Source of the DNA: Pseudomonadota bacterium
GTDB lineage: Bacteria; Pseudomonadota; Alphaproteobacteria; CACIAM-22H2
Length of the DNA stretch: 64,000 bases
Assembly (NCBI GenBank): GCA_052387815.1
Contig: JBQTIU010000022.1
Coordinates: 104,913-168,912 of the forward strand
Reading direction: 5' to 3'
Each line of letters opens with the position of its first letter. Position 1 is the stretch's first letter. The notes beneath the pieces were generated by a model that saw only the letters and a program-made list of their open reading frames with translations, ran no database searches and was not told the DNA's origin. Position numbers and translations under genes: made by a program. This document shows, one piece after another, positions 46,025 through 51,968 of the stretch.

Positions 46025-47257
46025 TCAGGCGCGGGGCCGCCTGAGGAACGAGGTTCCGCGCTCGAGCGGCGGGAGGCCGAGGTGGAGGGCGAGGCTCTGG
46101 CCGATATCGGCGAAGGTCTTGCGCTGGCCGATGGGCCTGGGCGCCACCTCGGGGCCGAAGGCCAGCACCGGCACGTGCTCGCGGGTGTGGTCGGTGCCGC
46201 GCCAGGTGGGATCGCAGCCGTGATCGGCGCTGATCACCGCCACGTCGCCGGGACGCAAGGCGCGCTCGAATTCCGGCAGGCGCGCGTCGAACTCCTCGAG
46301 CGCCGCGGCATAGCCGGCGGGGTCGCGGCGGTGGCCGAACAAGGTGTCGAAATCGACGAAGTTGGCGAACACCAGCGTGCGCTCTTGGGCCTCGCGCGCC
46401 GCCTCGAGCGTGACGTCGAACAACGCCATGTTGCCCTCGGCCTTGACGGTGCGGGCGATGCCGCGATGGGCGAAGATGTCGGCGACCTTGCCGACCGCGA
46501 CCACCGTCCCGCCGCTCGCCGTAAGCCGGTCGAGCAGGGTGGGCGCCGGCGGCGGGGTCGCGAGGTCGCGGCGGTTGCCGGTGCGCCGGAAGCCGCCCGG
46601 GGAGCCCACGAAGGGCCGTGCGATCACCCGGCCGATGCGGTAGGCGTCGACCAGATCGCGGGCGATCTCGCACACCTCGTAGAGCCGCGTCAGGCCGAAG
46701 GTCTGTTCATGGGCCGCGATCTGGAACACGCTGTCGGCCGAGGTGTAGACGATCGGCTTGCCGGTGCGCAGGTGCTCGGCCCCCAGCTCGGCGACGATCT
46801 CGGTGCCCGAGGCGTGGCGGTTGCCGATGAGGCCGGGCAGCCGCGCCCGGGCGATCAGCGCGCCCGTTAGCTCCTCGGGGAAACTCGGGTAGGCCGGCGG
46901 GAAATAGCCCCAGTCGAACTCGACCGGCACGCCGGCCATTTCCCAGTGGCCGCTCGGCGTGTCCTTGCCGCGGCTCACTTCCGCCGCATAGCCATGAGCG
47001 CCGGCGAACGGCCCGGCGGACTCGAGGCCCGGCGGCATGCGCCCGGAACTCAAGCGCGCGGCCTCGCCGAGGCCGAGGCGCACGAGGTTGGGGAGCTTGA
47101 GCCGACCGCGGCGACGAGGGGTGTCGGCGCCGCCGGCCGCGCAGGCGAGCGCGATGTGGCCGAGCGTATCGGCGCCCGCATCGCCGAACGAGGCGGCATC
47201 GAGGGCGGAGCCGATGCCGAACGAATCCATGACCAGGAGGAAGGCGCGTCGAGCCAT
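46025..47257 (-). CDS. deoB: phosphopentomutase
   Basis: 410 aa; metal-binding [12 protein letters not shown]-terminus and a C-terminal ADHGCDPT motif. Confidence 0.9.
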
Positions 47258-47337
47258 GCGTGCCTCGCCACCGAGACCGCGAGTTTACCCGATTCCACCG
47301 CCGGCGGGGACGTTCTCGGGTCTCCTTCTCGGGGAAA

Positions 47338-47703
47338 CTATGATCTGCCGTCCCGCCAGCGGTCCAGGATGCCCCATGCGTCGAGACCGACGCCTGTGCC
47401 TTCGTACTCTCGACAGATCGCTTCGAGGACGGACACGGCGCGATCGGGAGCGAACAGTAGGGCGTCCGCCGCGGCCTGAGTGCGCACGCCCAGGTTCTCG
47501 TGTTCGAGGAGCAGCAGCAGTGCCGCGTGCGCGTCCCTGCCGCGTGCATGAAGTTCGCGCCCAATGCCGATGATGATGTCCATCTTGCGGTTCTCCGCCG
47601 GCGTGTCGAGAACGACGACCGCTTCGAAATGCTCGAGGGCCGTCTTCTCGTACCGAGCGACGAGTTCCGCGACCGCCAGTTTGGCATAGTTCGGTCTGGC
47701 CAT
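47338..47703 (-). CDS. HEAT-repeat-like small protein, copy 2 (putative immunity protein; DUF2019-like)
   Basis: 121 aa; about 95% nucleotide identity to the upstream copy; HEAT-like ALLLLLEHENLGVRTQAAADAL repeat. Confidence 0.6.
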   Translation of the reverse strand: MARPNYAKLAVAELVARYEKTALEHFEAVVVLDTPAENRKMDIIIGIGRELHARGRDAHAALLLLLEHENLGVRTQAAADALLFAPDRAVSVLEAICREYEGTGVGLDAWGILDRWRDGRS

Positions 47704-47731
47704 CGGCTGGTCGTTCCTCGCGCCTCCCCTT

Positions 47732-48106
47732 TCACGGAAGTTGTGATTCACCGTTCCGCCAACGGTCCAGGATGCCCCCTGCGTCCGCTCCGATGCCTGT
47801 CCCTTTGAAATCGCGTCGGATCGCTTCGAGGACGGACACGGCGCGATCGGGAGCGAACAGAAGGGCGTCCGCCGCGGCCTGAGTGCGCACGCCCGGGTTC
47901 TCGTGTTCGAGGAGCGGCAGCAACGCCGCGTGCGCGTCCCTGCCGCGTGCATGAAGTTCGCGCCCAATGCCGATGATGATGTCCATCTTGCGGTTCGCGG
48001 TCGGCGTGTCGAGGACGACGACCGCTTCGAAATGCTCGAGGGCCGTCTTCTCGTACCGAGCGACCAGCTCGGCGACGGACAGTTTCGCGTAGTTGACTTT
48101 GCTCAT
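47732..48106 (-). CDS. HEAT-repeat-like small protein, copy 1 (putative immunity protein; DUF2019-like)
   Basis: 124 aa; start codon overlaps the stop of the upstream 245-aa gene (ATGA), indicating translational coupling. Confidence 0.6.
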   Translation of the reverse strand: MSKVNYAKLSVAELVARYEKTALEHFEAVVVLDTPTANRKMDIIIGIGRELHARGRDAHAALLPLLEHENPGVRTQAAADALLFAPDRAVSVLEAIRRDFKGTGIGADAGGILDRWRNGESQLP

Positions 48107-48840
48107 TTTAGAACTCCATGGTCTCGCAAGATATTCAACCCTCTTCTGTACTGCCGACCGAAGTCCAGCTCCTCGATCGATTCGCGGACCGAAAGGCCGT
48201 TCAGGTCACGGGGCCTCCTGTTGTAATACCCGGTTATCCCCCAGTGTTTCCAGAACGGGATGCAGACGATGTTCTCGGTGGTGTGGATGCGGCCCGGGAA
48301 CCTCGCCAAATTCCCGTCGGTCTGCCCGACGATATGATGGCAGTCCTGCCAAACCCGGATCTTGTTCTCGAAATACTTCTCGAAAGCCTTGGGGCTGTCA
48401 AACTCCATGTACTCGGGCGACATGCGAAGCTCATCGAGGGTCCGCGGGTACTCCAGCTCGTCCATCAGCGCGCGCACGACTTCTGCCGTGATGACCACCG
48501 CACCTCTCAGCCGGCGACCCAACTCGCTGGTGACTTTCTCAACGTTGATGGCAACCAGCTGGAGCCAGCGCTCGCGCTCCGTCGTCGGCGTTCCGTTGGC
48601 GCCGTTCCCGTGGTTGCTGCTGTCGGCATTGCCATCGCCGCCGCCGGCCTCCCGCCACTGTCCGCCCGTGGACGTGCCGGCAGGATGACGCGGCTGGTTG
48701 GGATCGAACCCGGCTTTGAGGCCGAGTTGCACCTCGAGCGCGATGAGCCGGCGGTCCACATCCTCATAGAAGCGCCGCACCCCCGCACGGATTCGATCCA
48801 GGAGCTCGCGGAGCTTGTCGGGTGGGAGATGCTGCAGCAA
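48103..48840 (-). CDS. putative toxin with a C-terminal HNH/AHH-like nuclease motif
   Basis: 245 aa; C-terminus reads QDCHHIVGQTDGNLARFPGRIHTTENIVCIPFWKHW, an HH-x(n)-N-x(n)-H His-Me finger pattern; lower GC than flanking genes; AGGAA Shine-Dalgarno. Confidence 0.5.
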   Translation of the reverse strand: MLQHLPPDKLRELLDRIRAGVRRFYEDVDRRLIALEVQLGLKAGFDPNQPRHPAGTSTGGQWREAGGGDGNADSSNHGNGANGTPTTERERWLQLVAINVEKVTSELGRRLRGAVVITAEVVRALMDELEYPRTLDELRMSPEYMEFDSPKAFEKYFENKIRVWQDCHHIVGQTDGNLARFPGRIHTTENIVCIPFWKHWGITGYYNRRPRDLNGLSVRESIEELDFGRQYRRGLNILRDHGVLK

Positions 48841-49021
48841 GGGAATTCCTGGAGTCCGTATGCCCGTTTCGTACTTATTATCAACAATACGGACTTATTG
48901 TCAAGAACAAACTGGTCTTTCCGGTTCGGCGCCATCAACCTCTTGATATGGCTGTTAGATTTATCCACCGGCGGGCCCGATCACGCGGCCGCGCGAACCA
49001 CGCCGGCGACCGCGCGCCGCG

Positions 49022-50353
49022 TTACGGCCCGGCGCCGAGCCGCCGCAGGATCACGGGCGTGAGTGCCGGTCGGTGATCGCCGACCACGACCGCGGCGCGG
49101 ATCGCGGCCGCGGCGCGCTCGGCGTCGGCGCCGTTGCGGGCGTGGACCACGCACAGCGGCGCCGCGCCGACCTCTTCGCCGGGGCCGCGCACGTCCGCGA
49201 GCCCGACCGCGGGATCGATGTCGTCCTCGGCCCGCCGGCGCCCGCCGCCGAGCGCCACAACCACGAGCCCGAGCGCGCGGGCGTCCATGCGCTGGAGGAT
49301 GCCGGCGCGATCCGAGGCGACCGGCAGCCGCACCGGCGCCGCCTCGAGATAGCGGCCAGCGTGCTCGACGAGATCGGCGGGGCCGCCAAGCGCGGCCACC
49401 ATCCGTGCGAAGCGCTCGGCGGCGTCGCCCGAGGCGAGCGCGCGCTCGACCGCGTGATGCGCGGCGTCGCGATCCGGGGCCACGCGCCCCAGCACCAAAA
49501 GCTCGGTCGCCAGCGCGCGCGTCACCTCGTCGAGCCGGGCCTCGCGCGCAGCGCCCGTCAAGTAGGCGACCGCCTCCTTGACCTCGAGCGCATTGCCAGC
49601 ACTGCGGCCCAGCACCTGGTTCATGTCGGTGAGCAACGCCACGGTGGGTAGCCCGGCGCCGGTCGCCACCTCGACGATGTTCTCGGCCAGCAAAGTTGCG
49701 TCGCCGACCGCCGGTAGGAAGGCGCCCGAGCCGAACTTCACGTCCATCACCAAACCCTTGAGGCCTGCCGCGAGCTTTTTCGACAGGATCGAGGCGGTGA
49801 TCAGCGGCACCGACTCGACGCTCGCGGTCAGGTCGCGGACGGCATAGAGGCGGCGGTCGGCCGGCGCGAGGTTCGGCGTCTGGCCGACGATGGCGCAGCC
49901 GACCTCGCGGACCGCGCGCTGGAAGCGATCGAGGCCGGGCCTGGTGTCGTAGCCAGGGATGCTGGCGAGCTTGTCGAGGGTGCCGCCGGTGTGGCCGAGC
50001 CCGCGACCCGAGATCATCGGCACCGCCCCGCCCGCCGCCGCGACGATCGGGGCGAGCATGAGGCTGACCTTATCCCCCACCCCGCCGGTCGAGTGCTTGT
50101 CGAGCGGGGGCCCCGGCAGGTCCTCTCGCGACCAGTCGAGAACGACGCCCGAGCGGGTCATGGCGCGGGTCAGCGCGACTCCTTCCTCGCGCGTCATGCC
50201 GCGCAAGAAGACCGCCATGGCGAAGGCGGCGATCTGCGCCTTGTTGAGCGACCCGTCCGTGATCCCGCCAACCACGAACTCGATCTCGGCCTCGCTCAAG
50301 CTCGCGCCGTCGCGCTTGCGGCGGATGATCTCCTGGGGCAGGAACGAAGCCAT
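49022..50353 (-). CDS. deoA: thymidine phosphorylase
   Basis: 443 aa; HSTGGVGDK phosphate-binding motif. Confidence 0.9.
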   Translation of the reverse strand: MASFLPQEIIRRKRDGASLSEAEIEFVVGGITDGSLNKAQIAAFAMAVFLRGMTREEGVALTRAMTRSGVVLDWSREDLPGPPLDKHSTGGVGDKVSLMLAPIVAAAGGAVPMISGRGLGHTGGTLDKLASIPGYDTRPGLDRFQRAVREVGCAIVGQTPNLAPADRRLYAVRDLTASVESVPLITASILSKKLAAGLKGLVMDVKFGSGAFLPAVGDATLLAENIVEVATGAGLPTVALLTDMNQVLGRSAGNALEVKEAVAYLTGAAREARLDEVTRALATELLVLGRVAPDRDAAHHAVERALASGDAAERFARMVAALGGPADLVEHAGRYLEAAPVRLPVASDRAGILQRMDARALGLVVVALGGGRRRAEDDIDPAVGLADVRGPGEEVGAAPLCVVHARNGADAERAAAAIRAAVVVGDHRPALTPVILRRLGAGP

Positions 50354-50377
50354 GTCACGCCCGCGGGGTGAGCGCGA

Positions 50378-51160
50378 TCAGTATCGGGAGCGCTCGCCGG
50401 CGCCCGTCCCGTGGCCGAGCCGGCGCAGGAGGTCGTCGAGGAGCCCGCTGGCGCCGATGCGCAACGTGCGCGAGCTCGCCCAGGCGGGCCCCAGGATCGC
50501 ATCCGCGAGTTCGAGATAGGCCCGCGCCTGCTCGAGGGTCTTGACGCCGCCCGCGGCCTTGAAGCCGACCGTCCGGCGCGACCGACGGGCCTCGCGGATC
50601 GCCTCGAGCATGGTGCGCGCCGCCGCCGGCGTGGCGCCCACCGCAACCTTGCCGGTCGAGGTCTTGAGGAAGTCGGCGCCGGCCGATATCGCCTCGCGGC
50701 TCGCCGCGGCGATGAGCTCGGGGCTCTTCAGCACCCCGGTCTCGAGGATGACCTTGAGGGTGGTCCGGGGTCCGGCCGCCGCGCGGACCGCCGCCACCCC
50801 CGCGCGCGCCTGCGCCCGCCGCCCGGCCATGAAGCGGCGATAGGGGAACACCATGTCGATCTCCTCGGCGCCTTCGGCAAGCGCCGCCTTCGCTTCCCTG
50901 GCGGCGGCGGCGGGGCTGGCGTTGCCGGCCGGGAAATCGACCACGGCGGCGACCCGGACCCCGGTGCCTTCGAGCGCCCGGCGGGCCACGCAGGCAAGCC
51001 GCGGGTAGACGCACACCGCGGCCACCTTGCCCGCCGGCGTGAGCGCGCGCTTGCACAGCGCCGCGATCGCCGCCTCGTCGTCGCTGTCGTTGAGGCTCGT
51101 TAGATCGAGCAGCGAGAGCGCCCGACGGGCGTCTCGAGTCTCCTTGCGCTCACTCGGCAT
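50378..51160 (-). CDS. deoC: deoxyribose-phosphate aldolase
   Basis: 260 aa; catalytic Lys in the conserved DFLKTSTGK segment. Confidence 0.85.
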   Translation of the reverse strand: MPSERKETRDARRALSLLDLTSLNDSDDEAAIAALCKRALTPAGKVAAVCVYPRLACVARRALEGTGVRVAAVVDFPAGNASPAAAAREAKAALAEGAEEIDMVFPYRRFMAGRRAQARAGVAAVRAAAGPRTTLKVILETGVLKSPELIAAASREAISAGADFLKTSTGKVAVGATPAAARTMLEAIREARRSRRTVGFKAAGGVKTLEQARAYLELADAILGPAWASSRTLRIGASGLLDDLLRRLGHGTGAGERSRY

Positions 51161-51968
51161 CGCCGAGGCCCTCGAGAAACGCCGTCAACAGCCGGCCGAG
51201 ATCGCCTGCCGCTTGCGCCGCGACCCGCAGGGTCTCGGCGTGGGCGATCGGGCTTGCGTCGAGGCCGGCGGCGAGGTTGGTGATCGTCGAGATGGCGGCG
51301 ACGCGCAGGCCGCAATGGCGGGCGACGATGACTTCGGGCACCGTCGACATGCCCACGGCATCGGCGCCGAGCGCGATGAAGGCGCGGATCTCGGCCGGAG
51401 TCTCGAAGCTCGGGCCGAGACAGCCGAGATAGACGCCCTCGCCGAGCGCGATCCCGAGCGCCGCCGCCTTGGCTTTCAGCAACCGGCGCAGCGCCGGATC
51501 GTAGGCATCGACCAGCGACGGGAAGCGCGGTCCGAAGGCCTCGTCGTTGGGCCCGGCCAGGGGATTGCCGGGAAAGAAGTTGATGTGGTCGGCGATCGTC
51601 ATCAGCTCGCCGGGGCGCAGGTCGCGCTTGAGCGCGCCGGCGGCGTTGGTCAGGATCACGATCTCGCACCCGATCAACTTCAAGGTGCGGATGAAGGTCT
51701 TGACGGATTCGGGCGCCACACCCTCGTAGGCATGGGCGCGGCCCTTGAGGCAGGCCACGCAAACGCCGCCGAGCCTCCCCAAGACCGCTTGCCCCGGGTG
51801 CCCTTCCACGCGCGCCGTCGGGAATCCAGGGAGATCGCCATAGGCGATGGCGATGGGCGCCTCGATGCGCTCCGCGAGGGCGGACAGGCCCGACCCGAGG
51901 ACGATGCCGACGCGGGGCGCGAACCCGGGCGCCAGACTCGCGATGACCTCGGCCGCCGTCGCCGCCAT
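51150..51968 (-). CDS. punA: purine nucleoside phosphorylase (trimeric PNP-I / PunA-type)
   Basis: 272 aa; GIVLGSGLS phosphate loop and a VGMSTVPEV segment. Confidence 0.85.
   Translation of the reverse strand: MAATAAEVIASLAPGFAPRVGIVLGSGLSALAERIEAPIAIAYGDLPGFPTARVEGHPGQAVLGRLGGVCVACLKGRAHAYEGVAPESVKTFIRTLKLIGCEIVILTNAAGALKRDLRPGELMTIADHINFFPGNPLAGPNDEAFGPRFPSLVDAYDPALRRLLKAKAAALGIALGEGVYLGCLGPSFETPAEIRAFIALGADAVGMSTVPEVIVARHCGLRVAAISTITNLAAGLDASPIAHAETLRVAAQAAGDLGRLLTAFLEGLGDAE

Follow-up and report, generated by a model that had tools for sequence, protein, structure and literature searches.

How two similar small genes came to stand side by side within a nucleoside catabolism cluster, and what they may do there, is the question raised by positions 47338-48840 of a stretch of 64,000 nucleotides (hereafter the window) on contig JBQTIU010000022.1 of a Pseudomonadota metagenome-assembled genome (MAG). 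On the minus strand, this locus encodes a 245-aa putative toxin followed by two genes of the DUF2019 family (PF09450), copy A and copy B (Table 1). An earlier note, made from the sequence alone, had described the two as a recent tandem duplication of a putative immunity gene with about 95% nucleotide identity. The explanation favored here, which is probable though it leaves ample room for doubt, is that the locus represents a polymorphic-toxin-type cassette of three genes, carried between deoA and deoB on an insert of lower GC, in which the immunity gene was duplicated within the lineage and its central part was later homogenized.

Mosaic identity of the two DUF2019 genes

Both open reading frames (ORFs) lie on the minus strand exactly where the earlier note placed them, the shared strings that it quoted occur in both copies, and the repeat is real. 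A repeat finder reports a direct repeat of 300 nt with a period of 403 nt and 89% identity, and the ungapped repeat core extends over 344 nt (47751-48094 against 47348-47691, 91%). The alignment with dN/dS (nonsynonymous over synonymous divergence) that had been proposed as a check gives 40 differences in 363 nt when the copies are compared codon by codon (323/363, 89.0% nucleotide identity), with 17 amino acid changes (104/121 identical, 86%) and a dN/dS of 0.35 for the whole gene (dS 0.24, dN 0.08; Nei-Gojobori). The figure of about 95% thus fits the central part of the gene and not its whole length. Nucleotides 43-288 hold 9 differences in 246 nt (96.3% identity), while the remaining 117 nt hold 31 (73.5%), the low-identity ends corresponding to approximately the first ~14 and last ~25 codons. 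In a sliding window, identity is 78% at either end and 93-100% in mid-gene, and clustering of the differences to this degree was matched by none of 500 permutations, in each of which the breakpoint search was repeated.

Uniform identity that includes the flanks, as would be expected of a recent tandem duplication, is also not what is found, since the ends are about 73% identical and the sequences past the two stop codons share no significant similarity. For this reason, recent copying of a 403-nt unit including the 3′ spacer was considered and dropped. The likeness between the start of copy B (MARP) and that of deoB (MARR) was likewise considered as a duplication junction and is too short to evaluate.

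The adjective recent fares no better. In addition to the overall dS of 0.24, the Nei-Gojobori estimates by segment are 1.15 for codons 1-12, 0.115 for codons 13-96, and 0.50 for codons 97-121, which describes a mosaic instead of a uniformly young pair. Purely synonymous codon differences follow the same pattern, being found at 10 of 39 end codons and 4 of 82 central codons (Fisher p=0.0017). Since these synonymous-only differences also cluster at the ends, relaxed or positive selection on the termini alone is insufficient to explain the mosaic. At the protein level, the leucine/proline and threonine/alanine exchanges that had been noted among the substitutions are present (P64L, P71L, T36A, and A37E), but 13 of the 17 changes fall in the first 10 and last 25 codons, and identity over codons 97-121 is 56%. 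The 17 differences, at residues 2-4, 10, 36, 37, 64, and 71 and in the range 97-120, favor columns that are variable across the family (mean entropy 2.40 vs 1.62 bits, Mann-Whitney p=0.002). Both copies are intact and under purifying selection. Together, these patterns point to an older, lineage-specific duplication, placed well before the present by the dS of ~0.5-1 at the ends, after which gene conversion between the tandem copies would most simply have homogenized the central ~246 nt (dS ~0.1).

One copy could instead be an artefact of assembly, in the form of strain variants stitched in tandem or of an expanded repeat. The sequence does come from a MAG, and no second sample confirms the locus. 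Nevertheless, the copies differ at those 40 sites, their longest stretch of identity is 72 nt, and their surroundings differ as well, copy A overlapping the toxin stop codon and copy B having its own spacer and abutting deoB, with stop positions that also differ. A chimera of strain variants would not be expected to produce a functional spacer and a second start context, and an artefact is therefore hardly credible.

The place of the pair within the family supports a duplication in this lineage. The two copies resemble each other far more than chance would allow: among 71 DUF2019 genes from the related loci described below, the median pairwise identity is 46%. Copies A and B are mutual nearest neighbors at 86%, and neither exceeds about 35% identity to any other sampled DUF2019 protein, which argues for a lineage-specific duplication and upholds the tandem duplication of a putative immunity gene described in the earlier note. 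The pair comes directly after the gene for the 245-aa protein. Directly tandem DUF2019 pairs in other loci are 34-63% identical, which makes the window pair the closest of the tandem pairs observed. The toxin domain of the window is similarly isolated, with at most 36% identity to its relatives. Close carriers of the locus were not recovered: the JGI metagenomes contained no exact match to a 26-mer taken from the shared tract, no relatives came up when the two copies were used in a degenerate-peptide scan, and the 90% clusters of copies A and B hold one sequence from one contig each.

The putative toxin and its DUF2019 partners

Copies A and B score 46.5 and 42.8 bits against PF09450, over model positions 2-102 and 2-88 of 105, respectively, with a gathering threshold of 23.3 bits. 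Both also have weak HEAT_2 matches, and copy A, the copy used as query, aligns over residues 1-118 of 124 with RPA1889 of Rhodopseudomonas palustris (PDB 2I9C; phmmer E 4.3e-10), all of which agrees with HEAT/ARM-like helical repeats and with the HEAT-like helices that had been proposed from the sequence. RPA1889 is a small, all-helical protein that serves as the structural-genomics representative of DUF2019; it is homologous to both window copies and matches the toxin-linked DUF2019 genes of the related loci with E down to 1e-38, yet it was deposited as a hypothetical protein without an assigned function. NCBI annotates the copies as DUF2019 domain-containing proteins of a Pseudomonadota MAG (191,887-bp contig), with copy B given as 121 aa. 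The Imm-HEAT proteins are, like the window copies, small helical-repeat proteins encoded after toxin domains (Zhang et al., 2012), though the HEAT_2 matches of the window copies are weak. The reported partners of Imm-HEAT are Tox-REase-7 and Ntox34 (PMC3482391), unlike the domain found here. DUF2019 is not mentioned in the main text of that survey, whose resource files lay outside the search.

The 245-aa protein begins with a long helix and a conserved KAGFDPNQPR…GGQW module (~aa 1-65). A low-complexity linker joins this part to the HH…N…H domain at the C-terminus (~aa 128-245; H168, H169, N190, and H199). Across the family, the N-terminal part reads as a helix followed by KAGFDPNQPR.P.G…GGQW, and the consensus of the C-domain is GYDIHHIVEQ … N.V.IP..KH.EI..WY … SPR.YL…W..R..VGL.AL…GVLKP. 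Family alignments show no variation at H168 and H199 and hardly any at H169 and N190. No sequence match to the protein, which NCBI annotates as hypothetical, was found in Pfam, NCBIfam, PADLOC, PHROG, or PDB; a 47-sequence profile of the toxin likewise had no match among PDB sequences, and scans of all three cassette proteins against NCBIfam, PADLOC, and PHROGs gave nothing meaningful. A word-indexed search of 5.8 billion proteins returned three distant relatives only. With a family profile, 3720 matches at E<=1e-3, including 293 at E<=1e-30, were obtained among 1.84 billion representatives (50%-identity representative proteins), and the toxin is accordingly a member of a sizeable unnamed family.

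A confident AlphaFold2 (AF2) model of the C-domain (predicted local distance difference test, pLDDT, 87; predicted template modeling score, pTM, 0.78) shows a strand ending in the HH dipeptide, a second strand, a helix carrying H199, and further helices. The strand-strand-helix portion around the conserved histidines has pLDDT >90. This model is compatible with a ββα-metal (HNH/EndoVII) core, and a nuclease of this type is the most likely identity of the domain. The Tox-AHH, HNH, and EndoVII nucleases share with it the HH ending a β-strand, the conserved N, and the H in the following helix, and the strand-strand-helix core predicted for the domain would fit them. Tox-AHH domains are defined by the motif set [AG]HH, N, H, H, and Y (PMC3482391). 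In contrast, the residue before HH in the present family is usually I (C in the window protein) and not A/G. The domain also differs in a helical extension at its C-terminus, where the tail SPR.YL…GVLKP is conserved, and it has no significant sequence or fold match. Separately, 11 of 47 family members show sub-threshold similarity to PF09722, the C-terminal toxin-binding domain of Xre/MbcA/ParS antitoxins (best E 6e-4). This similarity covers 24 residues over the SPR.YL… segment, within the C-terminal ~45 residues of the toxin (for example, residues 189-212 of P0012), and was set aside.

A genome scan limited to one genome per species identified 64 related loci, to which one IMG/VR viral contig was added. 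The 64 scanned loci are all titled Alphaproteobacteria or unclassified Proteobacteria/Pseudomonadota MAGs (Pseudolabrys, Methylocella, Rhodoplanes, Blastochloris, and others). The six-frame ORFs of all loci were searched with hidden Markov models (HMMs) of DUF2019 and of the N-module and C-domain of the toxin. The 68 related loci hold 48 full-length toxin C-domains, of which 44 have a full-length DUF2019 gene next in line at a distance of -30 to +40 nt. Pairwise distances between toxin domains correlate with those between their downstream DUF2019 genes (Mantel r=0.62, reached in 0 of 2000 permutations). In several loci, toxin tips, some full and some truncated, form arrays in which every tip is paired with a DUF2019 gene (L004, L013, L028, L029, L032, L035, L042, and L045), and in about ten loci a toxin domain is followed by two DUF2019 genes. 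The latter arrangement agrees with the suggestion in the earlier note that immunity genes are amplified, which is also a general theme of such systems (PMC3482391). In L003 (1311-2228), a toxin gene and a single DUF2019 gene are followed by a gene for a 305-aa protein with two fused DUF2019 domains, a polyimmunity protein.

The N-module is also found with other C-terminal domains. It is fused to a CdiA-CT RNase A domain (PF18431) in L056 (5950-7041) and L065 (1247-2368) and to a MafB19-like deaminase (PF14437) in L062 (4439-5470) and L049 (2329-3279). Conversely, the C-domain also occurs beyond the Alphaproteobacteria. It has a homolog on Priestia megaterium plasmid pFDU301A (L070, 2621-4638), where it ends a 558-aa coiled-coil protein, preceded there by a PT-TG pre-toxin domain (PF14449, E 2.4e-10), and a DUF2019-like gene of 108 aa comes next. 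On the Azospira plasmid pAZI09 (L069, 3893-5088), a truncated C-domain lies beside an ISL3 transposase and precedes two tandem HEAT-like genes that are 34% identical. The toxin-DUF2019 order, the tip arrays, the swapped tips, and the PT-TG homolog are signatures of polymorphic toxins and their immunity proteins (PMC3482391), and DUF2019 is thereby suggested to be the immunity partner of the unnamed HH…N…H toxin domain. The pairing looks new, while tandem immunity genes are already a known theme.

The same arrays bear on a different history for the pair, following the string of immunity genes model for polymorphic toxins (Zhang et al., PMC3482391). In this history, copy B is the left-behind immunity gene of an earlier, closely related toxin tip, and recombination has placed the present C-domain and copy A ahead of it. 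Related loci do show alternating toxin and immunity genes with truncated tips, as well as a toxin followed by two immunity genes, and at their ends the two copies differ from each other as much as unrelated members of the family do (56% at the protein level over codons 97-121). The close relation of the copies to each other, set against their distance from all other DUF2019 proteins, fits such an origin poorly. In addition, the two genes are separated by a 28-nt spacer only, without a toxin-tip remnant; neither an orphan tip array nor a tip remnant was found in the window, only the second immunity gene. The 96% identical center would, moreover, still demand a later exchange between the copies. 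A left-behind copy B is thus unlikely, and duplication within the lineage is preferred.

Genomic setting of the cassette

In the window, the cassette interrupts a deo-type nucleoside catabolism cluster (PNP, deoC, deoA, and deoB; 46025-51968, all on the minus strand) as a 1.76-kb segment of lower GC between deoA and deoB (Table 1). GC content at third codon positions (GC3) is 0.77-0.79 in the cassette, 0.91 in deoA, and 0.92 in deoB. Because this value lies below that of the deo flanks and the cassette has its own promoter-like site, a foreign origin is suggested, and the cassette would be a horizontally acquired, stand-alone insertion in the deo cluster, with GC3 as the evidence for the insertion itself. 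The promoter-like site agrees with the consensus at 11 of 12 positions, compared with an expectation of 0.2 such sites in shuffled sequence.

Table 1. Positions of the cassette, its flanking genes, and associated features in the window.
Feature	Position	Strand	Remarks
deoA-type thymidine/pyrimidine-nucleoside phosphorylase	49022..50353	-	Upstream flank; Pfam Glycos_transf_3, Glycos_trans_3N, PYNP_C
Sigma-70-like promoter (TTGACA, 16 nt, GATAAT)	48877..48904	-	AT-rich spacer past deoA; consensus match only
245-aa putative toxin	48103..48840	-	TTG start at 48840
Copy A, 124-aa DUF2019 putative immunity gene	47732..48106	-	PF09450 E 3.8e-12
Inter-copy spacer, 28 nt	47704..47731	-	Contains a purine-rich ribosome-binding region, GGGGAGG…GAGGAA, that serves copy B
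Copy B, 121-aa DUF2019 putative immunity paralogue, intact	47338..47703	-	PF09450 E 5.4e-11
Low-divergence tract of copy A (gene nt 43-288)	47819..48064	-	Partner 47416-47661
Low-divergence tract of copy B (gene nt 43-288), putative gene-conversion tract	47416..47661	-	
deoB-type phosphopentomutase	46025..47257	-	Downstream flank; Pfam Metalloenzyme superfamily E 6.5e-40

A Shine-Dalgarno sequence (AGGAA) lies ~7 nt 5′ of the TTG start of the toxin gene. The ATG of copy A overlaps the toxin stop codon (ATGA), and copy A is therefore probably translationally coupled to the toxin. With copy A coupled in this way and copy B provided with a ribosome-binding site of its own, both proteins are probably made. 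The end of copy B is 80 nt from the start of deoB. Since no terminator-like site was found in 47100-49200, deoB may rely on read-through or on the cassette promoter. Around the promoter-like site, a 12-nt direct repeat on the minus strand (TTGACAATAAGT, 48893-48904, and TTGATAATAAGT, 48873-48884) holds the -35 and -10 boxes, and an 8-nt inverted repeat on the same strand (GTCCGTAT, 48887-48894, and ATACGGAC, 48854-48861) flanks the -10 box. These repeats (48854-48904) could form an operator for autoregulation.

The chromosomal setting allows for another type of system, a type II toxin-antitoxin or addiction/abortive-infection module in which the DUF2019 copies act as antitoxins of an intracellular toxin. 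No secretion or phage genes lie near the window locus, and the toxin is small and without a recognized trafficking domain, as such a module would have it; the PF09722 similarity described above would point the same way had it not been set aside as evidence. The cassette has no PADLOC match, however, and DUF2019 lacks a DNA-binding domain typical of antitoxins. The toxin-first order, the arrays of truncated tips, the exchange of RNase and deaminase tips, and the PT-TG homolog are hallmarks of polymorphic toxins instead. A module of this kind is consequently improbable, and the polymorphic-toxin interpretation is retained.

Features of described polymorphic toxins recur in the family. It shares with them a conserved N-module with swappable C-terminal toxins and an immunity gene directly downstream, and the relatives of the window cassette also display orphan tip cassettes, strings of two or more immunity genes, and the fused double-DUF2019 protein of L003, as do polymorphic-toxin loci with multiple 3′ immunity genes or polyimmunity loci (PMC3482391). 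Unlike the described systems, the C-domain has no Pfam model, and the window cassette is stand-alone, without a known trafficking domain or apparatus.

The usual habitat of the relatives is a different one. The cassette lies beside head-morphogenesis genes (portal, S78 protease, and capsid) in 34 of the 68 loci, as determined with five reference queries. In Pseudolabrys sp. Root1462 (L014), genes for the portal and S78 prohead protease are followed by the toxin and DUF2019 genes, with a capsid gene further on. On viral contig IMGVR_UViG_3300014491_000437 (L004, 3976-8330), a toxin array is situated between the portal and head-maturation protease genes. Relatives are found directly after the portal gene in L004, L029, L030, and L045 and after the S78 protease gene in others; the window cassette is in neither position. 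The L004 array comprises two full toxins, four DUF2019 genes, a split toxin tip, and a toxin N-terminal fragment, and its N-terminal motif is the variant ESKHPRVPAGSPGGGQF. In L001 (426-2122) and many Pseudolabrys loci, the cassette follows the S78 prohead protease gene, and in L002 (69-1891) it comes after two other phage-like genes, one for a Phage_TAC_6 chaperone and one that is tape-measure-like. No match to the toxin family or to DUF2019 was found by tblastn in the INPHARED phages.

The placement of these relatives in head-morphogenesis modules, just past the portal or the prohead protease and ahead of small immunity ORFs, resembles that of the MuF polymorphic toxins of temperate phages (Jamet et al., 2017, PMC5576092). 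Unlike MuF toxins, the N-terminal region here is only ~60 aa long and the window cassette lies outside a prophage. A search with PF04233 and PF06152, and not with the profiles of MuF3 and MuF4, found no MuF domain in the window protein or in any of 10 longer relatives. From this habitat, a more far-reaching scenario can be drawn, which is tentative and, taken as a whole, doubtful. The toxins would constitute an undescribed polymorphic-toxin family native to the head modules of alphaproteobacterial HK97-type prophages or of clusters resembling gene transfer agents (GTAs), with a short non-MuF N-module (the long helix and DPNQPR…GGQW) that targets swappable tips (HH…N…H, RNase A-like, or deaminase) into capsids, perhaps with processing by the adjacent S78 protease, and with DUF2019 as the dedicated immunity protein of the HH…N…H tip. 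The window would then hold a domesticated, stand-alone copy whose immunity gene is at an early stage of duplication, conversion, and divergence, a process that in other loci has led to tandem immunity genes of 34-63% identity.

Proposed action and significance

Under the preferred explanation, that of a polymorphic-toxin-type cassette with a duplicated and partly homogenized immunity gene, the 245-aa toxin would act through its C-terminal HH…N…H nuclease-like domain, and the DUF2019 helical-repeat protein would bind and block the cognate toxin domain. The presence of two copies would provide either a higher dose of immunity or two slightly different binding specificities. Observation covers the repeat and its mosaic, the assignment of the proteins to families, and the conserved order of toxin and DUF2019 genes; that the protein is toxic, acts as a nuclease, and is neutralized by binding, and that gene conversion took place, is inferred.

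Several points weigh against this explanation. Toxicity and immunity lack experimental support in any member of the family, and a full-text literature search, in which DUF2019 turned up in two unrelated papers only, returned no published function for DUF2019, RPA1889, or PF09450. With regard to nuclease chemistry, Foldseek searches of the full-length and C-terminal AF2 models against PDB and BFVD gave nothing significant, although many of the sub-threshold BFVD fold matches are HNH endonucleases. PF14412 (AHH) matches 1 of 47 members weakly (E 0.017, below threshold), and HNH_2 has a weak match to one family member. The window toxin itself departs from the family at near-invariant positions of the HHIVEQ motif region, with W164 in place of G, Q165 in place of Y, and G172 in place of E, residues at which ~90% of family members differ from it, and it carries an insertion of ~12 residues ahead of the HH dipeptide (region of residues 150-172). 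Because three near-invariant residues are replaced, its activity may be altered, reduced, or lost. Neither phage genes nor a delivery apparatus were found near the cassette in the 64-kb window. The case for gene conversion draws on one sequence pair with breakpoints chosen post hoc, the end segments offer few sites for estimates of divergence, and the locus is known from one genome only, such that the order of events cannot be rooted.

The duplication itself is textbook for toxin-immunity loci and of little weight. Of greater consequence is that a testable function as an immunity protein is gained for DUF2019, whose structure is solved (2I9C) but to which Pfam assigns no role, and that an unnamed toxin domain is defined, to which no fewer than 293 representatives at 50% identity match strongly (E<=1e-30). 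If the toxin is active, the A/B pair, with 86% identity and 17 substitutions, offers a compact natural experiment for the mapping of immunity specificity. For the family at large, the distribution of the related loci suggests that, in Alphaproteobacteria of the soil, the head modules of prophages or GTAs are vehicles for swappable toxin cassettes that lack a MuF domain.

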